A stretch of 55,882 nucleotides of DNA from a virus. Its lineage: Duplodnaviria; Caudoviricetes. The position numbers and the translations under genes were made by a program. The DNA lies in the IMG/VR virus record IMGVR_UViG_3300007363_000002, positions 1-55,882 of that record. The stretch is one strand, 5' to 3'. Below the pieces are notes generated by a model. That model had not been told where the DNA came from. It did not search any database and was given only the letters and a program-made list of their open reading frames with translations. Numbering within the stretch: position 1 is the stretch's first letter; each line of letters opens with the position of its first letter. Below, piece by piece: positions 1,450 through 10,981 of this stretch.

Positions 1450-1873
1450 CGTTCTTTTCCCTTATCTCCAGCCCACGGGCATCCAGTGTTTCGTTGATGC
1501 GGTTCGCCATTAACTCAATCCCAGAACGATCTTTCGCCATCCCCAAATCCCACAGAACATCGAATAGCGGGTCGGGTTCGGGCTTGGGGATAATGAGGGC
1601 TTTAAGTTTTTCCCAATCATCTGGCCCACCACATGCGTAGACGTAGTGATGCACAATATCGCTCACCTCTTGCCGGAAGTCGGCAAGCTCCTGCTTGACG
1701 CCCTGCAACTCCTTCTTGATCTTTTCGTGCAGTTGGATGGAGCGGATGAAGGCACTAACTTCGGGGGTGTTGATTGCCAGCCAGTCGATTGGCTTAAAGC
1801 CCCCTCGCACACGATATTCGTTAATGAGGTCTACGCCAATTTGCCTAAATGCTTCTTTTTCAGTGTCGGCCAT
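1442..1873 (-). CDS. Hypothetical early protein
   Basis: 143 aa; C-terminus (PDPL...LD..G.EIREKNDG) is shared with the upstream gene. Confidence 0.7.
   Translation of the reverse strand: MADTEKEAFRQIGVDLINEYRVRGGFKPIDWLAINTPEVSAFIRSIQLHEKIKKELQGVKQELADFRQEVSDIVHHYVYACGGPDDWEKLKALIIPKPEPDPLFDVLWDLGMAKDRSGIELMANRINETLDARGLEIREKNDG
1446..1468. repeat. 23-bp gene-junction repeat (copies at 1870-1892; partial at 1240-1257)
   Basis: ccatcgttcttttcccttatctc is identical at 1446 and 1870; 17/18 match at 1240. Confidence 0.9.
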
Positions 1874-2111
1874 CGTTCTTTTCCCTTATCTCAAAGCCAA
1901 GTTTGTCCAGTGCGGCGCGGATGGTCTTGGCGTCGTTGGGTGGGTAATGGTCGAACGTCACACCCTCTAACGCAGCCACCAGCGGGTCAGGTTTCCCCAC
2001 ACCGCCGCCACCCCCTGTTTGCCGCCCACAACAATATGGGCAGAGCGAAAGCACGGGCTGCAAACCGGGGCCGCCTCCGCCTCCTTGGCGGAATTTGTGT
2101 TCAGTTGTCAT
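1860..2111 (-). CDS. Gly/Cys-containing hypothetical protein
   Basis: Start ATG 2111 after GAGG; ends EIREKNDGRH. Confidence 0.55.
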   Translation of the reverse strand: MTTEHKFRQGGGGGPGLQPVLSLCPYCCGRQTGGGGGVGKPDPLVAALEGVTFDHYPPNDAKTIRAALDKLGFEIREKNDGRH

Positions 2112-2293
2112 TTTAACCTCGTTATGAAAGTGACGCCATTGATCGTGCGGCACTTGAAGACCTTGCCGTGGCGGATGCCGTACTGGCTGACGTTCCGAGA
2201 CGTGCGCTTTATCGAACCCTTCTTGTCGGCTGGCATGCTGGCGACCTCGCCGACCTCCAGCGCTCCCATTGGGTATATCATCGGTCTGGGCAT
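2108..2293 (-). CDS. Small basic hypothetical protein (possibly DNA-binding)
   Basis: YPMGALEVGE...GKVFKCRT...ITRLK resembles a common small phage protein. Confidence 0.65.
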   Translation of the reverse strand: MPRPMIYPMGALEVGEVASMPADKKGSIKRTSRNVSQYGIRHGKVFKCRTINGVTFITRLK

Positions 2294-2472
2294 TAGTTGC
2301 CCCCCGCTTGAAGCATAAGGTCCGCCACCTTGTAGGCTCGCTCGGTAATATCCCTTGGCGTTTGGGTTCGGTAGTATTCGGTGATCAAAGCAGGTAGCGC
2401 TTGCCCAGCAAAGTAGTCGCGCAGGGTCATGCCGCGGTCAAAATAACTGCCGAATGCTTTTAAGTTGCTCAT
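2293..2472 (-). CDS. 59-aa conserved phage protein with a GMTLRDYFA motif (not in ORF track)
   Basis: Manual translation MSNLKAFGSYFDRGMTLRDYFAGQALPAL...AYKVADLMLQAGGN; GGAG SD; TAATG coupling. Confidence 0.8.
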   Translation of the reverse strand: MSNLKAFGSYFDRGMTLRDYFAGQALPALITEYYRTQTPRDITERAYKVADLMLQAGGN

Positions 2473-2491
2473 TGTGTTTCTCCAGTTAAAG

Positions 2492-2755
2492 TTATTCGCC
2501 GCAAGTGTCGCAGCCGTCTGGTGATTTAATCTCGACCGTGAAGCCCGCGTCGCGTAGGACGCCGACGGTCAGGCAGTTGGTCAGGTAGAGGGAACGCTCG
2601 CGCTCCATAACCAAATCTTTCTCCGTCTCCAGCTTGCTGCGGCGCTCGCGCTCCAGCTCGGCGGCGTGCCGCTCGACCTGCTCGATCAGCCGGTCAATCT
2701 TCCACTGAAGCTCGTCTGGGCCGCCTGCGGGTGTGTCTTCGGTGATGGCGGTCAT
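2492..2755 (-). CDS. Coiled-coil hypothetical protein with a C-terminal CxxC
   Basis: GGAG SD; ATGA coupling. Confidence 0.65.
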   Translation of the reverse strand: MTAITEDTPAGGPDELQWKIDRLIEQVERHAAELERERRSKLETEKDLVMERERSLYLTNCLTVGVLRDAGFTVEIKSPDGCDTCGE

Positions 2756-3147
2756 GCTGGGTCTCCAGTTGGGGCGGCGCGTTCATATGCGGCAGCGGCG
2801 GCGACATAAACCGCACGGGCGGCGTCGTAGGCGGTGTAGGCTTCGAGGGCAGCAGCGCGGGCGACGTCGTCGGTTGCTGGGTCGGGTGTCGTGGTCGGCG
2901 GCTCCGTGGCCGTCGCCTCTTCCTCACCGGTCAGAACCGCTCCGAACAACCAATTCTCGCGCACCCTAAACTCAAGGCTTGTGTTAGGCCCAAAAACGCA
3001 CCCGCGAGCAATAAGCTCTTTTCGGACGGCCATTTCGATAAACAAATCCAAGACTGTTATTTCGGTCGTGGTGCGGGTCGTGGTCGTTATTGAGATGTCG
3101 GTCCGGATGTTGTGACCCTCAATTACTTTGTGCTTTTTCTTGCTCAT
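2752..3147 (-). CDS. Hypothetical protein with an Ala-rich C-terminus
   Basis: AGGAG SD; ATGA coupling. Confidence 0.6.
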   Translation of the reverse strand: MSKKKHKVIEGHNIRTDISITTTTRTTTEITVLDLFIEMAVRKELIARGCVFGPNTSLEFRVRENWLFGAVLTGEEEATATEPPTTTPDPATDDVARAAALEAYTAYDAARAVYVAAAAAYERAAPTGDPA

Positions 3148-3404
3148 GCTGCCTTCTCCTGTTGGTGGACGTACAGTGCCTCGTCGAGCAGCTCCTCGCG
3201 CAGCGTGTGCAGCGCAGCCAGTCGGTCAAAGTGGGTGGTGCGGTCGGCGACGCAGGCCAGCGTGTCGTTGGGATAGTCGCGACCGTTTGGCGTGGCACCC
3301 TTGAGGGCGTCGATGACCTCGTCGATCAGGGCCATCGCATTGCGGCGCGGGTTGATGAGGTCAAAGGCGTCTGAGCCGTTGATGTTGAGTGTTGGTCGTA
3401 TCAT
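3144..3404 (-). CDS. Hypothetical early protein
   Basis: AAGGA SD and ACCAACAAC leader motif. Confidence 0.7.
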   Translation of the reverse strand: MIRPTLNINGSDAFDLINPRRNAMALIDEVIDALKGATPNGRDYPNDTLACVADRTTHFDRLAALHTLREELLDEALYVHQQEKAA

Positions 3405-4282: not shown

Positions 4283-4343
4283 AGGGCCGCGCGGATAGCC
4301 GTCCACGCAGCCCAATCAACACCGTCAGTGAGGACAGGTGCCA

Positions 4344-5108
4344 ATGACTAAAGACTTACCACGCGGCGTCACATATAAAAAGGCCCGCCGCAAATATATT
4401 GCTCGCATCGGTGTGCGCGGCAAGAGTATCTCCCTCGGCAGTTTCGATACCGCTGCGGAGGCAGAGGCCGCCTATGCCGCTGCCGTTGAGGTTTACGGCC
4501 CGCGAGACAATATCGGCCTGACGGATGAGCAGAAGGCCAAACACCGCCGCTGGGTTGAACAGCGGCCCACCATCGCCAAAAGTTTTGCCGCCATCGGCGC
4601 GTTCGATCCAGACAACCCGTGGCCTGTTGAGACCACCCGCGTCACGCTGCCGACCAAAGAGGTGTTGGTGTTGGATCACTACACGCGGCAGGTTAATGTT
4701 TACGGCGATCACCTGACCGTTGCGCATTTCAGGGGGAAGTGCGACTTCGGTAAGACGTTGGGCAGCCGCTGCGGCGCGAAAGTGCTCACGCCGTACTGGC
4801 TGGATGGCAGCGACCGACCGGGCGCGATATGGCGGCGGTGTGAGGCCCACGCAAAGAAGAGTTCTCTGCGGTCCTACCACGGTTTTGTAGCGGGGTGGGA
4901 CGCCGCGCACGCCAGTGTGGGTAGGTGCCGCATCGCGGATGGCCCACTGCCTGACAGCGAACGTCGGCCCATGGGACAGCGCGCAAGATATTACCGTGAG
5001 AAATATAATTTGCTCATGGATCTTATCTATGAAAGCTACAGTGATGTTCCAAGCGATTGGTGGCGCAGCCTTCCGCCGTATGTTGTGGCCCCTTGCGCAG
5101 ACGAATGA
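4344..5108 (+). CDS. AP2-domain DNA-binding protein with an unknown C-terminal region
   Basis: N-terminal RGVTYKKARRKYIARIGVRGKSISLGSFDTAAEAEAAY matches the AP2 pattern. Confidence 0.65.
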   Translation: MTKDLPRGVTYKKARRKYIARIGVRGKSISLGSFDTAAEAEAAYAAAVEVYGPRDNIGLTDEQKAKHRRWVEQRPTIAKSFAAIGAFDPDNPWPVETTRVTLPTKEVLVLDHYTRQVNVYGDHLTVAHFRGKCDFGKTLGSRCGAKVLTPYWLDGSDRPGAIWRRCEAHAKKSSLRSYHGFVAGWDAAHASVGRCRIADGPLPDSERRPMGQRARYYREKYNLLMDLIYESYSDVPSDWWRSLPPYVVAPCADE

Positions 5109-5159: not shown

Positions 5160-5621
5160 ATGCAGACGATGCCGTACCCGGCGAAGAAGAGTGACAAGTT
5201 GATAGCGGAGGTGCTTGATCGCCTGTCGCTCGGCGAGACTATGACGTCCATCAGCCGCGACTTGAAGTTCAGCACGATGTCGTGGAGCCGGTGGCTCGAA
5301 GAGGACAAAGAGTTGTCGGCCGCCCACGCGCGAGCCAGAGCGGTCGGCGCAGACGCCGTGGCCGACCACGTCATGGAGATCGTGGACGCACCACCAGAGC
5401 GGCACGACGGCAAGATCGACAACGGCTCTATAGCATGGGCGCGCAACCGCGCCGAGTATCGGCTGAAGCTGCTCGGCCACTGGCGGCCGGACAAGTACGG
5501 CACGAAGACCACCACCGAGATCACCGGCAAGGACGGCAAAGAGATTAACCTGATCGACGCGCAGGAACTGGCGCTGCGCCTCGGCGAACGCCTTCGCGCA
5601 TCGAAGCGTGACGCCGAATGA
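5160..5621 (+). CDS. terS: Terminase small subunit (Sf6/P22-like)
   Basis: N-terminal HTH, AHARARAVGADAVAD helix and RPDKYG motif; upstream of TerL. Confidence 0.8.
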   Translation: MQTMPYPAKKSDKLIAEVLDRLSLGETMTSISRDLKFSTMSWSRWLEEDKELSAAHARARAVGADAVADHVMEIVDAPPERHDGKIDNGSIAWARNRAEYRLKLLGHWRPDKYGTKTTTEITGKDGKEINLIDAQELALRLGERLRASKRDAE

Positions 5622-5976: not shown

Positions 5977-6158
5977 AGCTGGCCCTGTTCACCAACCCAT
6001 GGCGTCGCGTCCGCGAACTTGAGGCCGAGGCGAAGCATCACGCGACCGAGAAGTACGCGCTCAACCACGCGCTGCATCTGGCGAACGAGCGGTACGACAA
6101 GATACGCGCGGCCAACGCCGAACTGCGTGAGACGCTGACACTCTATCGCGATGCTTGA
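5973..6158 (+). CDS. Small coiled-coil protein
   Basis: ATGA coupling; overlaps the TerL start. Confidence 0.6.
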   Translation: MKLALFTNPWRRVRELEAEAKHHATEKYALNHALHLANERYDKIRAANAELRETLTLYRDA

Positions 6159-8409
6159 CGTCCTCGATCCTGCGGTCGTCGCGACACTGCCACCCGAGCT
6201 GCGGGTCTATGTCGACTGGCAGGAGCGCTGGTCGGCCACGGCGCGACCGAACCAGATCCCGCAGGAAGACTTCAGCGAGTGCGGCTTCATGGCCGGGCGC
6301 GGCTTCGGTAAGACACGCATCGGTGCCGAGTGGCTGGGCGCGAAGGCGGCCGAAGTGCCGAACACCTTCTGCGCCGTGATCGCGCCGACCTACGCCGACG
6401 TCAAGCACACGTGCTTCGAAGGTGAGAGCGGCCTGCTCAACGTCATACCCGAGGGGTTGATCAAGCGATACAACAGCTCGGATCTCGTACTCGAGATGAA
6501 GAGCGGAACGACGATACGCGGCTTCACGTCCGAGAAGCCAGCGCGTCTGCGCGGCCCCCAACACGAGTTTATTTGGTGCTTTATCGCGGGCACGCTTGTC
6601 CGCACGCCGTCCGGCGATGCGCCTATCGAGACGCTGCGCCCCGGCGACGTTGTCATGACGCGACGTGGACCGCGAGCCGTGCTGGCCAACAGCCGCCGCG
6701 ATGATCAGCCTGTTGGCGAAGTATCGTTCGACAACGGTGCGAAACTTGTTGGCACGGCGGACCATCCCGTGTATCTTAAATCCGGTTGGACGAGAATGGA
6801 CCAACTACAGATAGGAGATACGGCATGTGCGATCAGTGCATCGAGTGGGGCGGCAAGCGGTGGCACAAATACCGCAGCGGGTATTACGAGCGGACTGACA
6901 AGTCTGTTAAGCCTAAGCGCACGCTTCGCCTTCACCGCGAAGTCTGGCTTGACGCGCACGGCGAAATACCTGCGGGACACGACATCCATCACGTCAATGG
7001 CGACAAGGGCGACAACAGTCTGGACAACCTTGAGTGCCTATCTCACGGCGCACACAAGGCGCACCATATCGCCGACGATCCTATCCCTCGCTGCGACTGG
7101 ACCGCACGACCCGACATCACGTTGGCCTGCGTCGATTGCAAGTGCGAACTTATCCGCAAGCGGGCCACAACCAACCCGCGCTGCCGCAAGTGCGCTCAGG
7201 TCGCAGGTGACGACAAGCGGAAAGTTAAACGCATCTGCCAGTGTTGCGGCACCGAGTTCGTCTCCCGCGCCGGTAACTTCTGTAGCCAGCGTTGCGTCAA
7301 CGTGGCAACCGCAGGGGCGACAGTCCGTGTACTGCCTGAAGGTCGACAGCGAGCCTGAATACTTCGCCAACGGCATCCTCGTCCACAACTGCGACGAGCT
7401 GGCCGCGTGGCAGAACGCCAACGAAACATGGGACATGGCCATGATGGGCCTGCGTCTCGGTAAGGCTCCACAAGTTGTGTGGACCACGACCCCCCGCCCC
7501 GTGGAGCTGGTGCGCAAGCTGATCGTGCCGAAGGCTGGCCGCGTCGTGATCAGCGGCGCGACGTTCGACAACAAGGACAACCTGCCTGACCGCTTCTTCG
7601 AGCAGCTCGAGCAGTACGAGGGCACGACCATCGGCCGGCAGGAACTGTACGGCGAGCTGATCGATCCGGAAGAGAGCGGCGTCATCAAGCGGAGCTGGCT
7701 CAAGTTGTGGCCCGCGAAGAAGCCGCTGCCCGCCTTCGACTGGATCATCATGTCCCTCGACACCGCATACACCGAGGCGACCCGCGACAAGAAGAGCGGC
7801 GAGGCCGACTACACGGCATGCAGCGTCTGGGGCGTGTTCCAGCACGAAACCAAAGGCTACACCATCCTGCTGGACTGCTGGCAGGAGCAGCTCGGCATGC
7901 CCGACCTGATCAAGCGCGTGAAGAAGGAAATGAACACGGCATACGGCGACGATCAGGACGTCGCGTTGATCAAGCCCATGTACGGCAGCGCAAAGCCGCT
8001 GACGTCAGGGCGCAAGCCAGACATCCTGCTGATCGAGGACAAGGGGAGCGGCATCAGCTTGAGACAGATGCTCGAACGCGAGGGCATATTGGCGCACGCC
8101 TATAACCCCGGTCGGGCAGACAAGCTGGCGCGCCTGCACGTGGTCAGCCCGGTGTTCGCCCGGCGCAGGGTGTTCCTGCCCGAGAGCGACAAGTTCCCCG
8201 GCAAGCCGCGCGTCTGGTCCGACCCGCTGGTGGCGCAGCTATGCAGCTTCACCGGCAAGGGGAGCATCAAGCACGACGACTTCGTGGACAGCACGACGCA
8301 GGCCTTCCGCCTCATGATGGACAAGGGCATGCTCGGCACGCTGATCGACAAGCGGCGAGAGATAGACAAACCACCGCCGAAGGTGATACAGAACCCGTAC
8401 GGGCAATAA
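6151..8409 (+). CDS. terL: Terminase large subunit precursor containing an intein (481 aa after splicing)
   Basis: Walker A GRGFGKT, Walker B FIW|CDE split by the intein, coupling motif TTTP, RNase H-like LDTA...IEDK...HDDFVD. Confidence 0.95.
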   Translation: MLDVLDPAVVATLPPELRVYVDWQERWSATARPNQIPQEDFSECGFMAGRGFGKTRIGAEWLGAKAAEVPNTFCAVIAPTYADVKHTCFEGESGLLNVIPEGLIKRYNSSDLVLEMKSGTTIRGFTSEKPARLRGPQHEFIWCFIAGTLVRTPSGDAPIETLRPGDVVMTRRGPRAVLANSRRDDQPVGEVSFDNGAKLVGTADHPVYLKSGWTRMDQLQIGDTACAISASSGAASGGTNTAAGITSGLTSLLSLSARFAFTAKSGLTRTAKYLRDTTSITSMATRATTVWTTLSAYLTAHTRRTISPTILSLAATGPHDPTSRWPASIASANLSASGPQPTRAAASALRSQVTTSGKLNASASVAAPSSSPAPVTSVASVASTWQPQGRQSVYCLKVDSEPEYFANGILVHNCDELAAWQNANETWDMAMMGLRLGKAPQVVWTTTPRPVELVRKLIVPKAGRVVISGATFDNKDNLPDRFFEQLEQYEGTTIGRQELYGELIDPEESGVIKRSWLKLWPAKKPLPAFDWIIMSLDTAYTEATRDKKSGEADYTACSVWGVFQHETKGYTILLDCWQEQLGMPDLIKRVKKEMNTAYGDDQDVALIKPMYGSAKPLTSGRKPDILLIEDKGSGISLRQMLEREGILAHAYNPGRADKLARLHVVSPVFARRRVFLPESDKFPGKPRVWSDPLVAQLCSFTGKGSIKHDDFVDSTTQAFRLMMDKGMLGTLIDKRREIDKPPPKVIQNPYGQ
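6577..7389 (+). mobile_element. Intein (271 aa) in the TerL Walker B motif, with no in-frame endonuclease
   Basis: Block A CFIAGTLV, block B GTADHPV, block F VYCLKV..EYFANG, block G ILVHN followed by extein +1 Cys. Confidence 0.93.
6825..7358 (+). CDS. HNH endonuclease with C-terminal Zn ribbons, nested out of frame inside the intein
   Basis: LHREVW..HGEIPAGHDIHHVNGDKGDNSLDNLECL (HNH_3-type) plus CVDC, CRKC, CQCC and FCSQRC; AGGAG at 6813-6817 lies 7 nt before ATG 6825. Confidence 0.88.
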   Translation: MCDQCIEWGGKRWHKYRSGYYERTDKSVKPKRTLRLHREVWLDAHGEIPAGHDIHHVNGDKGDNSLDNLECLSHGAHKAHHIADDPIPRCDWTARPDITLACVDCKCELIRKRATTNPRCRKCAQVAGDDKRKVKRICQCCGTEFVSRAGNFCSQRCVNVATAGATVRVLPEGRQRA

Positions 8410-8419
8410 GGATTAGGCA

Positions 8420-10981
8420 ATGATCGAAGACGAAGAAACTCTCGAAGGCGAGATGGTTGAGTTCGATGGCGAGGAAGTCAGCGACGTTGAGGACACCGAG
8501 GACGGTGGCGCTATCGTCACGCTTGAGGAACTCGGACCGGCCGCAGGCGACAGTGAGTTCTACGACAACCTCGCCGAGACTATGCCCGAACCGGACCTAA
8601 AGTCACTGGCGTCGAAGTTCCTCGAACTGATCAGCAAGGACAAAGAGGCGCGCAAGAAGCGCGACGAGCAGTACGAAGAAGGCATCCGCCGCACAGGTCT
8701 GGGCGACGACGCCCCCGGCGGCGCACAATTCAACGGCGCATCGAAGGTCGTCCACCCGATGATGACCGAGGCGTGCATCGACTTCGCATCACGCGCCATC
8801 AAGGAGCTGCTGCCCCCGCAAGGTCCGGCCAAGGATCTGATCGAGGGCGAGGCCACGGTCGAGAAGATCCAGAAGGCGAAGCGCAAGACGTCCCTCATGA
8901 ACTGGCAGCTCACGGTGCAGAGCCAAGAGTTCCGCTCCGAGCTTGAGCAGCTCCTGACGCAGGTGCCGCTCGGCGGCGCGCAGTACTTGAAGCTGTCGTG
9001 GGACGAGGCGCGCAACCGCCCCGGCTTCCTTGCCGTCATGATCGACGACATGTACCTGCCCTTCGCGGCGACCAACTTCTACACCGCGCAGCGCAAGACG
9101 CACGTGCAGTACCTGACGCAGCTCGACTATGAGCAGCGCGTCCAGAGCGGCATGTATCGCGACGTCGACCTGTCGCCCGTCGGTCTTGAGCCTGACCGCT
9201 CGGCCGCCGACATCGCCAACGACAAGATCGAGGGACGCACCGACACCAGTTACAACGAGGATGGACTGCGCACCGTGTTCGAGTGCCACGTCATCGCCGA
9301 CGTCGAGGGTGACGGCAACGCGCCGTACATCATCACCATCGACAAGCCGTCGAGCAAGGTGCTCGCGATCTACCGCAACTGGGACGAAGAGGACGAGAGC
9401 CGCGAGCCGCTAGACTGGTTCGTCGAGTTCCCGTTCATCCCATGGCGCGGCGCGTACCCAATCGGCCTGCCGCACATGATCGGCGGCCTGTCCGCTGCCG
9501 CGACCGGCGCACTGCGCGCACTGATGGACAGCGCGCACATCCAGAACATCCCGACGATGCTCAAGCTGAAGGGCGGCACACGCGGCGGCCAGTCGCTGAA
9601 CATCCAGCCGACGCAAGTCGAGGAGATTGAGGGCGGCCTGAACGTCGACGACGTCCGCAAGCTGGCCATGCCCATCCCCTTCAACCCGCCATCGCCGACC
9701 CTGTTCCAGTTGCTGGGCTTCGTGGTCGACGCAGGCAAGGGCGTGGTCCGCACGTCAATGGACAACCTTGCCGACCAGAACCCGAACGCGCCTGTCGGCA
9801 CGACGCTCGCCCTGATCCAAGAGGGCATGACCGTGTTCTCGTCGATCCACGCGCGCCTGCACAATTCGATGGCCCGCACGCTGCGCATCCTGCATCGCCT
9901 CAATGCGATGTATCTGGACGACGCGGACGTGAAGCACGAGGTCGGCGAAGTGCTGGCCTCACGCGCAGACTTCGAAGGCCCGATGGACGTCGTGCCCGTG
10001 TCCGACCCGTCGATCTTCAGTGAGGCGCAGCGCTTCGCGCAGGTGCAGGCCGTGTCGCAGCGCGCCGCCGCACTGCCGCAACTGTACGATCAGCGCAAGG
10101 TTGAGGAGCGTCTGCTCGAGACACTGCGCATCCCGAACCCGCAGGATCTGCTCGTCGCGCCGCTGGAGCCGAAGGCGCAGAACGCAGTCAACGAGAACGT
10201 CGCGGCCACAATGGGCCGACCGATTGTCGCCTTCCCCGAGCAGGACCACATCGCCCACCTCAAGACGCACTTGGCGTACATGACGAACCCCGCGCTCGGC
10301 GGCAGCCAGCTCATAGCGCCGACGTACCTGCCGGGGATACTCGAGCACATCAAGGAGCACCTTGCCCTGTGGTACGCGGCGACCGTGCTTGAACTGGCCG
10401 AGGACACGTCCGGCATCGACATCAGCGAGGACATGAAGAACCTCAAGGACGACGAGGCCAAGCGTGCGTTCGACCGCATGCTCGCCGAGGCGTCGCAGAC
10501 TGTGGTTACCGACGCAACCGAAGTGTTCGCCGCGCTGCCGCCTGTCATTGCGCAGGCCATGGATATGATGCAGCAGCTCGCACCGCAGCCGCCACAAGAC
10601 CCGCGCACCGCGCTTGAGGGTCAGAAGCTACAGGCACAGCAACAGCGCGATCAGGCGCAGATGCAGCTCGACGGCCAGAAGATGCAGATGCAGATGCAGA
10701 AGGACCAGACGGCCATGCAGATCGAGGGTCAGAAGATGCAGGCCGACGCGATGCAGAGCCAAGCCGAGATGCAGCTTCAGGCACAGAAGCTACAGATCGA
10801 GCAGCAGCTTGAGCAGATGAAGCAGGACCGCGAGGACGCCCGCAAGTCAGCCGAACTGAACGCTCGCATGACCATGAATGCACAAGACAATCAGACAGCC
10901 ATGCAGCTTGCGCAGGCCGAGATCATGTCTGGCGAACGCATCGCGGTGTCAACAGGCACCGGGATAAACCCGAACCCGTAA
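8420..10981 (+). CDS. Portal protein (P22-like podoviral type) with a Q/M-rich coiled-coil tail
   Basis: 853 aa immediately after TerL; SKVVHP motif; long Gln-rich helical C-terminus. Confidence 0.85.
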   Translation: MIEDEETLEGEMVEFDGEEVSDVEDTEDGGAIVTLEELGPAAGDSEFYDNLAETMPEPDLKSLASKFLELISKDKEARKKRDEQYEEGIRRTGLGDDAPGGAQFNGASKVVHPMMTEACIDFASRAIKELLPPQGPAKDLIEGEATVEKIQKAKRKTSLMNWQLTVQSQEFRSELEQLLTQVPLGGAQYLKLSWDEARNRPGFLAVMIDDMYLPFAATNFYTAQRKTHVQYLTQLDYEQRVQSGMYRDVDLSPVGLEPDRSAADIANDKIEGRTDTSYNEDGLRTVFECHVIADVEGDGNAPYIITIDKPSSKVLAIYRNWDEEDESREPLDWFVEFPFIPWRGAYPIGLPHMIGGLSAAATGALRALMDSAHIQNIPTMLKLKGGTRGGQSLNIQPTQVEEIEGGLNVDDVRKLAMPIPFNPPSPTLFQLLGFVVDAGKGVVRTSMDNLADQNPNAPVGTTLALIQEGMTVFSSIHARLHNSMARTLRILHRLNAMYLDDADVKHEVGEVLASRADFEGPMDVVPVSDPSIFSEAQRFAQVQAVSQRAAALPQLYDQRKVEERLLETLRIPNPQDLLVAPLEPKAQNAVNENVAATMGRPIVAFPEQDHIAHLKTHLAYMTNPALGGSQLIAPTYLPGILEHIKEHLALWYAATVLELAEDTSGIDISEDMKNLKDDEAKRAFDRMLAEASQTVVTDATEVFAALPPVIAQAMDMMQQLAPQPPQDPRTALEGQKLQAQQQRDQAQMQLDGQKMQMQMQKDQTAMQIEGQKMQADAMQSQAEMQLQAQKLQIEQQLEQMKQDREDARKSAELNARMTMNAQDNQTAMQLAQAEIMSGERIAVSTGTGINPNP

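Follow-up and report, generated by a model that had tools for sequence, protein, structure and literature searches.

A predicted HNH_3 endonuclease gene nested in an alternative reading frame of a phage terminase intein

The window analyzed here, a complete 55,882-bp viral record (IMGVR_UViG_3300007363_000002) with direct terminal repeats at its ends, is the genome of a freshwater phage whose gene for the terminase large subunit (TerL) is interrupted by an intein. Inside the intein, and in the -1 frame relative to terL, lies a second open reading frame (ORF) encoding a predicted endonuclease of the Pfam family HNH_3. We consider it probable (about 0.8) that the two form a composite selfish element, in which a class-1 cis-splicing intein is combined with a separately read, I-HmuI-like HNH_3 nuclease and spreads by homing. 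A first-pass annotation of the window had already proposed that the intein keeps the host gene functional while a separate nuclease provides mobility. The intact insertion site in relatives, the selection on the nuclease frame, the start signals and the distribution of the element, all read from sequence, support this proposal. The coordinates of the features are given in Table 1.

Table 1. Features of the terL locus and of the nested endonuclease gene, with the evidence for each
Feature	Positions	Strand	Evidence
TerL precursor ORF, 752 aa (N-extein, intein and C-extein)	6151-8409	+	ORF list; Terminase_6N/6C; phrog_38, terminase large subunit
N-extein, 142 aa, ending ...RGPQHEFIW	6151-6576	+	BLASTP, residues 9-143: 53% to the TerL of Caulobacter phage RW, which lacks an intein
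Class-1 intein (predicted), 271 aa (Cys1...His-Asn)	6577-7389	+	Hint_2; boundaries from RW BLASTP and motif positions
N-terminal splicing domain, intein aa 1-86	6577-6834	+	AlphaFold2 pLDDT ~77-87 over aa 1-80, all beta strands; conserved alignment block
Shine-Dalgarno-like AGGAG, inside intein codons ATA GGA GAT (I-G-D)	6813-6817	+	Sequence; 7 nt before ATG 6825
Nested HNH_3 endonuclease gene (predicted), 177 aa and stop, frame 3 (-1) of TerL	6825-7358	+	HNH_3 Pfam; AlphaFold2 pLDDT 85; I-HmuI Z 7.9; homologs 35-63% identical nested likewise
Intein "linker," aa 87-231, Ser/Thr/Ala-rich TerL-frame reading of the HNH gene	6835-7269	+	Low pLDDT; lower identity than HNH frame
HNH catalytic core (predicted), HNH aa 36-76	6930-7052	+	Pfam stretch 36-76; invariant columns
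Two Cys4 zinc-ribbon-like modules: C102, C105, C120, C123; C138, C141, C153, C157	7128-7295	+	Eight invariant Cys
C-terminal splicing domain, intein aa 232-271	7270-7389	+	pLDDT 66-87; ETSVASV.STW...EYFANGILVHN conserved
C-extein, 339 aa and stop, opening with the +1 Cys of CDELAAWQN	7390-8409	+	65% identity to RW TerL residues 137-479

The boundaries of the intein were set by comparison with the 480-amino-acid (aa) TerL of Caulobacter phage RW, which has no intein. BLASTP gave two segments (53% and 65% identity) abutting exactly at residues 143 and 414 of the window protein, so that the predicted spliced TerL has 481 aa, in line with the 271-aa intein and the product length first proposed. 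The C-extein is also 86 to 95% identical to many intein-less alleles of the IMG/VR database. The intein opens with CFIAGT, carries TADH (block B) and closes with ...EYFANGILVHN, followed by CDELAAWQN; the splicing blocks of the first-pass annotation (Cys1, the Thr-His motif, the terminal His-Asn and the +1 Cys) were thus all recovered. The splicing residues C1, T60, H63, H270 and N271 are invariant across 18 relatives, and so is the +1 Cys, except in one of them (L019), which has Ser at this position. The DE pair just after the EFIW/C insertion site is what we take to be a Walker-B-like motif. The Pfam profile Hint_2 matched the intein with 36.8 to 38.7 bits (cutoff, 28.4), and Intein_splicing remained below its cutoff (26 to 30 bits against 35.8) because of the long insert. 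The TerL frame contains no stop anywhere in the intein. These residues, the profile match and the contiguous site in intein-less homologs are those expected of a class-1 intein with a Hint fold, which is predicted to splice.

The AlphaFold2 model of the intein, built with the 18 relatives, placed beta strands at residues 1 to 86 and 232 to 265, with a pLDDT (model confidence score) of about 66 to 87; residues 87 to 145 and 174 to 231 scored below 50. The linker between the two splicing domains matched no Pfam or PHROG family, and the absence of a recognizable domain noted in the first pass therefore stands. Its composition follows that of the genome, being rich in Ser, Thr, Ala and Arg at 60% GC and in Lys, Ile, Leu and Asn at 30% GC. 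The linker had further been described as just the shadow of the nuclease gene. This fits its middle part, where the only constraint appears to be freedom from stops, but not the end, where the last ~25 codons of the HNH gene (GNFCSQRCVNLAT...) overlie the strands of the C-terminal splicing domain (ETSVASVASTW...) and conservation is seen in both frames. In this overlap, the HNH tail GNFCSQRCVN, which is invariant, becomes, when read in the TerL frame, the conserved ETSVASV.STW strand, and the first ~29 codons of the splicing domain (7270 to 7358) double as the C terminus and stop codon of the HNH gene.

The nested ORF runs from an ATG at 6825 to a stop codon at 7356 to 7358, with an offset of +2 (that is, -1) from TerL. 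Its product matched HNH_3 with an E value of 1.7e-14 (53.6 bits; cutoff, 24.8) and the PHROG family phrog_15471, "HNH endonuclease," with an E value of 1.3e-19, which agrees with the position and family first assigned to this 177-codon ORF. The profiles of the two frames thus gave Hint_2 for the intein and HNH_3 for the nested protein, the latter being its sole Pfam family at E ≤ 1; Endonuclease_7 and IPR004211 gave no match at this threshold. Among 17 HNH sequences, H37, R38, H55, H56 and H77 are invariant and N64 and N68 nearly so. The four Cys pairs noted earlier as resembling zinc ribbons correspond to two CxxC...Cxx(x)C groups whose eight Cys are invariant among the HNH relatives. They are modeled as two small zinc modules, and residues 95 to 176 of the model match small zinc-ribbon and treble-clef chains with Z of about 3.

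The AlphaFold2 model of the nested protein has a pLDDT of 85. The closest entry of the Protein Data Bank (PDB) by sequence profile is the homing nickase I-HmuI (1U3E; E = 0.0037), which also ranked first in a Foldseek search of the PDB (probability, 0.99; E = 9.6e-3). Since no Foldseek match to the PDB reached E ≤ 0.001, VIA-align was used, giving Z of 7.9 against 1U3E, just below the tool's caution level of 8, with a root mean square deviation of 3.5 over 81 residues; the next match had a Z of 5.0. T4 endonuclease VII was absent among the 50 VIA-align matches listed, an absence that is not decisive. Taken together, the profile, the conserved residues and the modeled beta-beta-alpha-metal fold identify the nested protein as a putative HNH_3, I-HmuI-like endonuclease, whose activity is predicted.

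Both frames are open over 534 nt, as first reported, and this is unlikely to be due to chance. When the HNH ORF of the window was shuffled synonymously, the TerL frame stayed free of stops in 2% of the trials (0.5% when host codon usage was applied), and 10 stops interrupt the third frame over the same stretch. Homologous terL inteins also keep both frames open, as the first-pass annotation would have it: none of the 22 nested loci had a stop in the host frame over the HNH stretch, for mean expectations per locus of 1.0 to 3.9 (shuffles of its own codons) or 0.9 to 8.5 (host codon usage), and the third frame had 4 to 31 stops, near the shuffled expectation. The fraction of stop-free trials ranged from 0 to 0.36 per locus, and the log10 P values of the open host frames add up to -31.9 (own codons) or -39.5 (host usage) when the loci are taken as independent. 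In these sets, and in those used for the frame and start analyses, near-duplicates (L017, identical to L016; L018, identical to L010; and L033, close to L021; in some sets also L007 and L021) were either dropped or kept. The shuffles and the relatives of low GC content rule out chance open frames in GC-rich DNA. The host frame is actively held open, without stops even at 30% GC, which is indirect evidence that the intein needs to be made as one chain and spliced in cis.

An assembly error, which the first-pass annotation had named as a possible refutation, is also ruled out as the source of the two frames, by gap-free contigs from four sequencing runs and by the constant offset across loci. 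The Logan contigs of runs X1 and X2, which may be source samples, span 6151 to 8409 with 0 differences and 0 gaps, and that of run X3 spans 6151 to 7455. Run X4, from a different study, contains a relative that is 95 to 99% identical over 6513 to 7419, without gaps.

Substitutions point to the HNH frame as the selected one. In codon alignments of the HNH core, the differences per site over all pairs were 0.453, 0.413 and 0.636 at HNH positions 1, 2 and 3, respectively, position 3 of the HNH codons being position 2 of the TerL codons. The same excess was seen in close pairs (14, 8 and 40 differences between L020 and L021; 1, 1 and 7 between L006 and L007). Over the same bases, the HNH frame surpassed the TerL frame in amino acid identity in 12 of 12 pairs examined (0.86 against 0.59 for L020 and L021). 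This peak at the third HNH position suggests that the intein linker is the shadow of the nuclease frame. The codon-position counts and the identities per frame bear out the purifying selection on the nuclease expected in the first pass, and the overlapping middle of the intein seems to be constrained only to stay open.

The nested gene also has conserved start signals of its own, predicted to be built from intein codons. The AGGAG that the first-pass annotation had placed in the I-G-D codons, 7 nt before the ATG, is indeed there, and a Shine-Dalgarno-like motif (GGAG, GAGG, AGGA or GGGG) was found 8 to 15 nt ahead of the start in 17 of 17 loci. The Gly codon at this position was GGA or GGG in all 15 loci with a Gly there, compared with 35% of the 627 Gly codons in the exteins of the same genes. 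The nested start falls at intein residues 81 to 83 in 18 of 18 loci that share the insertion site of the window; 17 of these 18 were checked for the start codon, which was ATG in 15, GTG in 1 and TTG in 1. The start ATG is made of the last base of one codon and the TG of the next, which encodes the invariant Cys84. In three loci (L008, L015 and L016), the HNH frame is closed by a stop one codon ahead of the nested start, which rules out a programmed -1 frameshift fusion as a conserved route of expression, and reading 24 nt upstream of the start revealed no conserved slippery site, although no formal scan was made. These signals suggest that the nested gene is translated from its own start. The RNA-labeled runs X19 to X24 contain 9 to 20% of the sampled words.

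The nesting recurs well beyond the window. Searching IMG/VR with the HNH protein of the window gave 25 loci, in 19 of which an HNH frame of 149 to 191 codons lies inside a TerL ORF of 670 to 1,040 aa, at the identical offset and with the third frame always closed; loci of 44 to 50% GC are among them. The other six comprise a mini-intein remnant (L024), a DNA methylase (L025), a portal-gene intein with HNH_3 in frame (L026) and three free-standing genes (L027 to L029). Alignment scans of IMG/VR and GTDB genomes with the single pattern (G)NFCSQRC added just L032 and L034, both free-standing, and L033, nested and nearly identical to L021; L118 is likewise nested. Four isolated phages show nesting at the same offset: Tetrasphaera phage TJE1 (L002), Clostridium phage phiCDHM19 (L035), Acinetobacter phage Highwayman (L036) and Rhodobacteraceae phage LS06-2018-MD07 (L037). 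In these four, the element occupies a different, C-terminal site of TerL, and their GenBank records annotate terL alone, leaving the nested HNH_3 ORFs of 170 to 300 codons unannotated. In phiCDHM19, with a GC content of 0.30, the 799-aa TerL frame is open across an HNH frame of 230 codons. The same offset is thus found in more than 25 independent assemblies and in the four isolate genomes.

Other arrangements were seen among the relatives. L016 (identical to L017) encodes a TerL with two inteins, one at the site of the window and one at a C-terminal site (2814 to 3305), each with its own HNH_3 ORF in the -1 frame. In L025 (965 to 1411), a relative of the window HNH is nested at the -1 offset in a DNA methylase ORF, resembling the ShiLan-type insertion discussed below. 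Vibrio phage 1.238.A (L001, NC_055735) has a split form, in which the ORF for TerL and the N-intein ends at 2609, 38 codons into the HNH gene; this gene is an unannotated HNH_3 ORF of 236 aa at 2495 to 3205, related to that of the window. A separate C-intein ORF, annotated as a "hedgehog/hint domain protein" (3132/3144 to 3461), starts before the HNH stop, and the TerL of this phage has a further in-frame intein of LAGLIDADG type upstream. Lactobacillus phage CL2 has a relative as a stand-alone gene immediately following terL.

Among close relatives, the element is rare. When the C-extein was used as the query of a scan, 80 TerL loci of 68 to 95% identity were recovered, of which 77 were examined (L083, L086 and L108, whose match begins at residue 66 or later, were dropped) and 76 could be assessed, L062 having too short an upstream sequence. 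No intein was present in 73 of the 76, and 63 of these have an intact, uninterrupted ...W/CDE... site (the slash marks the insertion point). The intein-less junction reads ...TTTATTTGG/TGCGACGAG..., and the TerL of phage RW is contiguous at W/CDE together with the 63 IMG/VR alleles. All 19 alleles assessed at 94 to 95% identity lack the intein. The full element was found in the remaining three loci, L045 and L110 (on the contigs of L008 and L023) and L118, which was new and nested. Ten further uninterrupted relatives (L074, L075, L091, L092, L094, L095 and L103 to L106) read W-G-D-E or W-F-D-E and have no +1 Cys; these alleles might be unable to host the element. Runs X1 and X2 each contain a single short contig in which N-extein and C-extein are joined within 6557 to 7426, with 861 or 868 nt skipped, at a depth of 4 to 5 compared with 21 to 34 for the intein-bearing contig, and these joints may represent co-occurring intein-less alleles.

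The element is also shared between TerL families that are only distantly related. It occurs in families that are 27 to 32% identical in the C-extein, with HNH proteins of 30 to 54% identity and C-terminal splicing regions of 57 to 86%; between the window and L011 or L012, these values are 30 to 31% (exteins), 51 to 54% (HNH) and 77 to 86% (C-terminal splicing region). Being common to TerL families of ~30% identity, the element is mobile. Its sporadic presence among close alleles, and the identity of its HNH and splicing parts being uncoupled from that of the exteins, are as expected of a homing endonuclease. The exteins showed no clear gradient of identity at the splice site that would mark a co-conversion tract, either between the window and the intein-less L040 or between the window and the intein-bearing L008.

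If the composite element works as we propose, ribosomes in the TerL frame would read through the nuclease gene and produce an unstructured loop of ~145 aa, whose sole requirement would be the absence of stops. A stop-free loop would keep both intein halves on one chain, so that they could splice out; the Hint halves, joined by the floppy loop, would then release the 481-aa TerL with its ATPase motif restored. A minority of ribosomes would start at 6825 and make the free nuclease. By analogy with I-HmuI, this nuclease would most likely nick or cut element-free terL during co-infection, and repair would copy intein and nuclease together into the intein-less allele. The constant -1 offset may be explained by the HNH coding sequence itself, which gives the host frame few stops at this offset (~1 to 4, compared with 4 to 31 in the other frame), and an invasion in that frame could therefore survive and be polished.

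Several observations weigh against this explanation. Starting translation internally, within an ORF that is itself being translated, may be inefficient. The summed P values of the open host frames overstate the independence of the nested loci, since these share ancestry, and in several GC-rich loci the chance of an open host frame reaches 0.24 to 0.36. The 861- and 868-nt joints come from one short contig each, whose shorter side is 31 to 32 nt at 90% likeness. The window and L008 are 94% identical in the exteins and 82 to 91% in the splicing ends, yet 53% in the HNH core; at the DNA level (6577 to 7389 against 2451 to 3263 of L008), the identities are 91 to 92% for the exteins, 82 to 100% for the intein ends and 43 to 67% for the HNH core. 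This contrast fits a nuclease that moves independently or evolves fast as well as it fits simple co-homing.

The same contrast speaks for the strongest rival explanation, to which we give a small share of the probability, namely, that the nuclease gene parasitizes the intein, homing into mini-inteins or swapping between inteins while the intein spreads passively. Related HNH_3 cassettes are indeed found at the -1 offset in a second TerL site (the second intein of L016 and the group of TJE1) and in the DNA methylase of L025, and two preprints, from 2025 and 2026, favor, in the portions available, the secondary invasion of inteins by free-standing endonucleases. A mini-intein at the very site of the window (L024, 894 to 1295; 134 aa) might look like the target of such an invasion, the nuclease being lost from it, but only the final 41 HNH codons survive in it, 71% identical, which makes it the product of a deletion and not a target that had never been invaded. 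Its TerL ORF also contains an additional upstream intein with a LAGLIDADG-like motif. Moreover, intein and HNH divergence increase together across hosts, and the 73 close relatives without the element lack all of it, not merely the nuclease.

It is improbable that the phage has recruited the HNH protein, for instance as a terminase-associated packaging helper, and kept it for that use. Packaging is known to be assisted by HNH proteins whose genes adjoin those of terminases, according to PMC3592412, and the CL2 relative stands alone right after terL. Nevertheless, intein and nuclease are both absent from 73 of the 76 close relatives, the top structural match is a homing nickase and the genome has direct terminal repeats. 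The nuclease family is HNH_3, which we assume to be distinct from the short HNH proteins of packaging modules.

We regard as very improbable that the two frames are really one, joined by sequencing indels or by two programmed frameshifts into a canonical bifunctional intein: inteins with HNH_3 in frame do exist in relatives (L026, in a portal gene), but the offset is the same in all the assemblies and isolates mentioned above, the contigs of four runs are gap-free, the stop one codon before the HNH start of L008, L015 and L016 leaves no room for a shift, and a host frame selected to stay open would be needless for a fused reading. Equally remote is a decaying, functionless relic that is open by chance, since long spurious ORFs, common as they are at 61% GC, would not account for an HNH_3 match at E of 1.7e-14 with invariant catalytic residues, for an excess of third-position substitutions in the HNH frame or for ORFs intact in loci of 30 to 50% GC.

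Beyond the composite element in the window, a broader generalization can be offered only tentatively, and we hold it to be somewhat less likely than its opposite. HNH_3 cassettes could be autonomous invaders of any essential ORF that tolerates or removes an extra loop, surviving only in the -1 frame, with a Shine-Dalgarno motif and an ATG borrowed from host codons. So far, such cassettes are seen in a DNA methylase and, at two sites of TerL, in the endonuclease slots of inteins, where the few stops would have been purged synonymously. If so, the window family would be a living intermediate linking free-standing homing endonuclease genes, split inteins such as that of Vibrio phage 1.238.A and in-frame HNH inteins such as that of L026. 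It would also yield a "-1 frame rule" of general, predictive use in finding nucleases hidden in annotated phage genes, such as the unannotated ones of four GenBank isolates.

The genes around terL are ordered as an ORF with an AP2 domain (4338 to 5108), the small terminase (5160 to 5621; phrog_1482), the TerL ORF (6151 to 8409) and the portal gene (8420 to 10981). The AP2 ORF, on the plus strand upstream of the small terminase, encodes a 256-aa protein whose N terminus matches AP2 (E = 5.8e-6, short of the Pfam cutoff) and whose similarity to PHROG "HNH endonuclease" families is limited to this DNA-binding part; comparison with Pfam and PHROG profiles detected no HNH catalytic domain in it. 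The ORF might represent a free-standing gene resembling those of homing endonucleases that has degenerated or diverged. In Caulobacter phage RW (L031, MK929790), a 222-aa TerL-like ORF and a 176-aa ORF annotated as a methyltransferase lie on the minus strand at 1694 to 3019, upstream of the complete intein-less terL; this stretch looks like a duplicated or remnant N-terminal part of a terminase.

Whether the architecture had been published was left open in the first pass; as a kind, it is already in print, in the same two preprints. The parts available of the first (Gosselin, Arsenault, Gogarten, bioRxiv 10.1101/2025.01.02.630785) describe non-canonical inteins of actinobacteriophages, TerL being one of the proteins that carry them, in which a gene resembling endonuclease VII lies "in reading frame 3 relative to the intein," as well as antisense LAGLIDADG and VSR-like genes; 63 non-canonical inteins are tabulated, and the invasion of inteins by free-standing endonucleases is proposed. 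The window shares with them, as far as those parts go, a nuclease ORF on the same strand and in frame 3, in the endonuclease slot of a contiguous intein, with TerL among the hosts and an in-frame reading without recognizable structure. Its nuclease differs in being HNH_3 and I-HmuI-like, with two zinc ribbons, and by its profile matches it is not endonuclease VII-like, so that the actinophage type does not seem to apply. The hosts of the window family differ too, being phages that resemble those of Proteobacteria, along with phages of Clostridium, Acinetobacter and Tetrasphaera; when two members of the family were used in tblastn, no PhagesDB-type actinophage was matched at E ≤ 1e-5 or 1e-6. 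No analysis of stop avoidance or start signals was seen in the available portion of that preprint, and both are given here for the window family. Our literature search found no published out-of-frame HNH_3 gene in a terminase intein, although the supplementary tables of the 2025 preprint might include one, and a full-text search found no paper pairing "intein" with "phiCDHM19" or "TJE1."

The second preprint (Phillips, DeSimone, Gogarten, bioRxiv 10.64898/2026.09.14.751524), in its accessible parts, reports a cyanobacterial dnaX intein with a LAGLIDADG endonuclease in the +2 ORF and frame-dependent selection, and credits Gorbalenya 1998 with the first proposal. Like the window, that system has a contiguous intein with a +2-frame endonuclease, a low omega in the nuclease frame with a relaxed intein frame, a sporadic distribution and mini-inteins. 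Unlike the window, its nuclease is LAGLIDADG, its host gene is cellular and no phage is involved. With both ORFs open and signs of selection on the nuclease frame, the window can likewise be assigned to the inteins with an out-of-frame nested endonuclease gene.

In the "fractured genes" (Dassa et al. 2009, PMC2677866, available in part), the intein is split and its halves flank a free-standing endonuclease gene. Separate translation of an endonuclease located between N- and C-intein parts is common to these genes and, as predicted, to the window, and Vibrio phage 1.238.A has exactly the fractured form. The window does not, since its host frame is stop-free and would give one chain spliced in cis; in addition, the nuclease of Dassa et al. 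is VSR-like, according to the accessible part of the 2025 preprint. Out-of-frame HNH genes of the ShiLan type lie in phage DNA methylases without an intein, and the available part of their description reports no ribosome-binding site and proposes leaderless initiation (Arsenault et al. 2025, PMC11855218). The nesting of an HNH gene out of frame in an open host ORF is the same in both, L025 being such a methylase case at the same offset. The window family differs by its conserved Shine-Dalgarno-like motif, and the ShiLan insertion remains in the protein, because there is no intein to remove it.

The likeness to I-HmuI (1U3E), an intron-encoded HNH homing nickase of Bacillus phage SPO1, extends over the N-terminal strands and the HNH core, at an identity of only about 15%, and the two Cys4 zinc modules of the window protein set it apart. 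I-HmuI, by contrast, is encoded in a group I intron and has a helix-turn-helix tail. Relative to the known systems, the window contributes its HNH_3, I-HmuI-like nuclease family, an occurrence reaching beyond actinophages, numbers for the avoidance of stops and start signals that the intein provides. It represents no new category and adds a widespread and statistically well-founded HNH_3 branch to the inteins with a separate, overprinted homing endonuclease, a class so far described in two preprints. The nested genes missing from GenBank records, including those of a Clostridioides difficile phage and an Acinetobacter phage, matter for annotation, and the family bears on the origin of bifunctional and split inteins. 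Compact pairs of a mini-intein and a putative nickase are also candidates for engineering tests.

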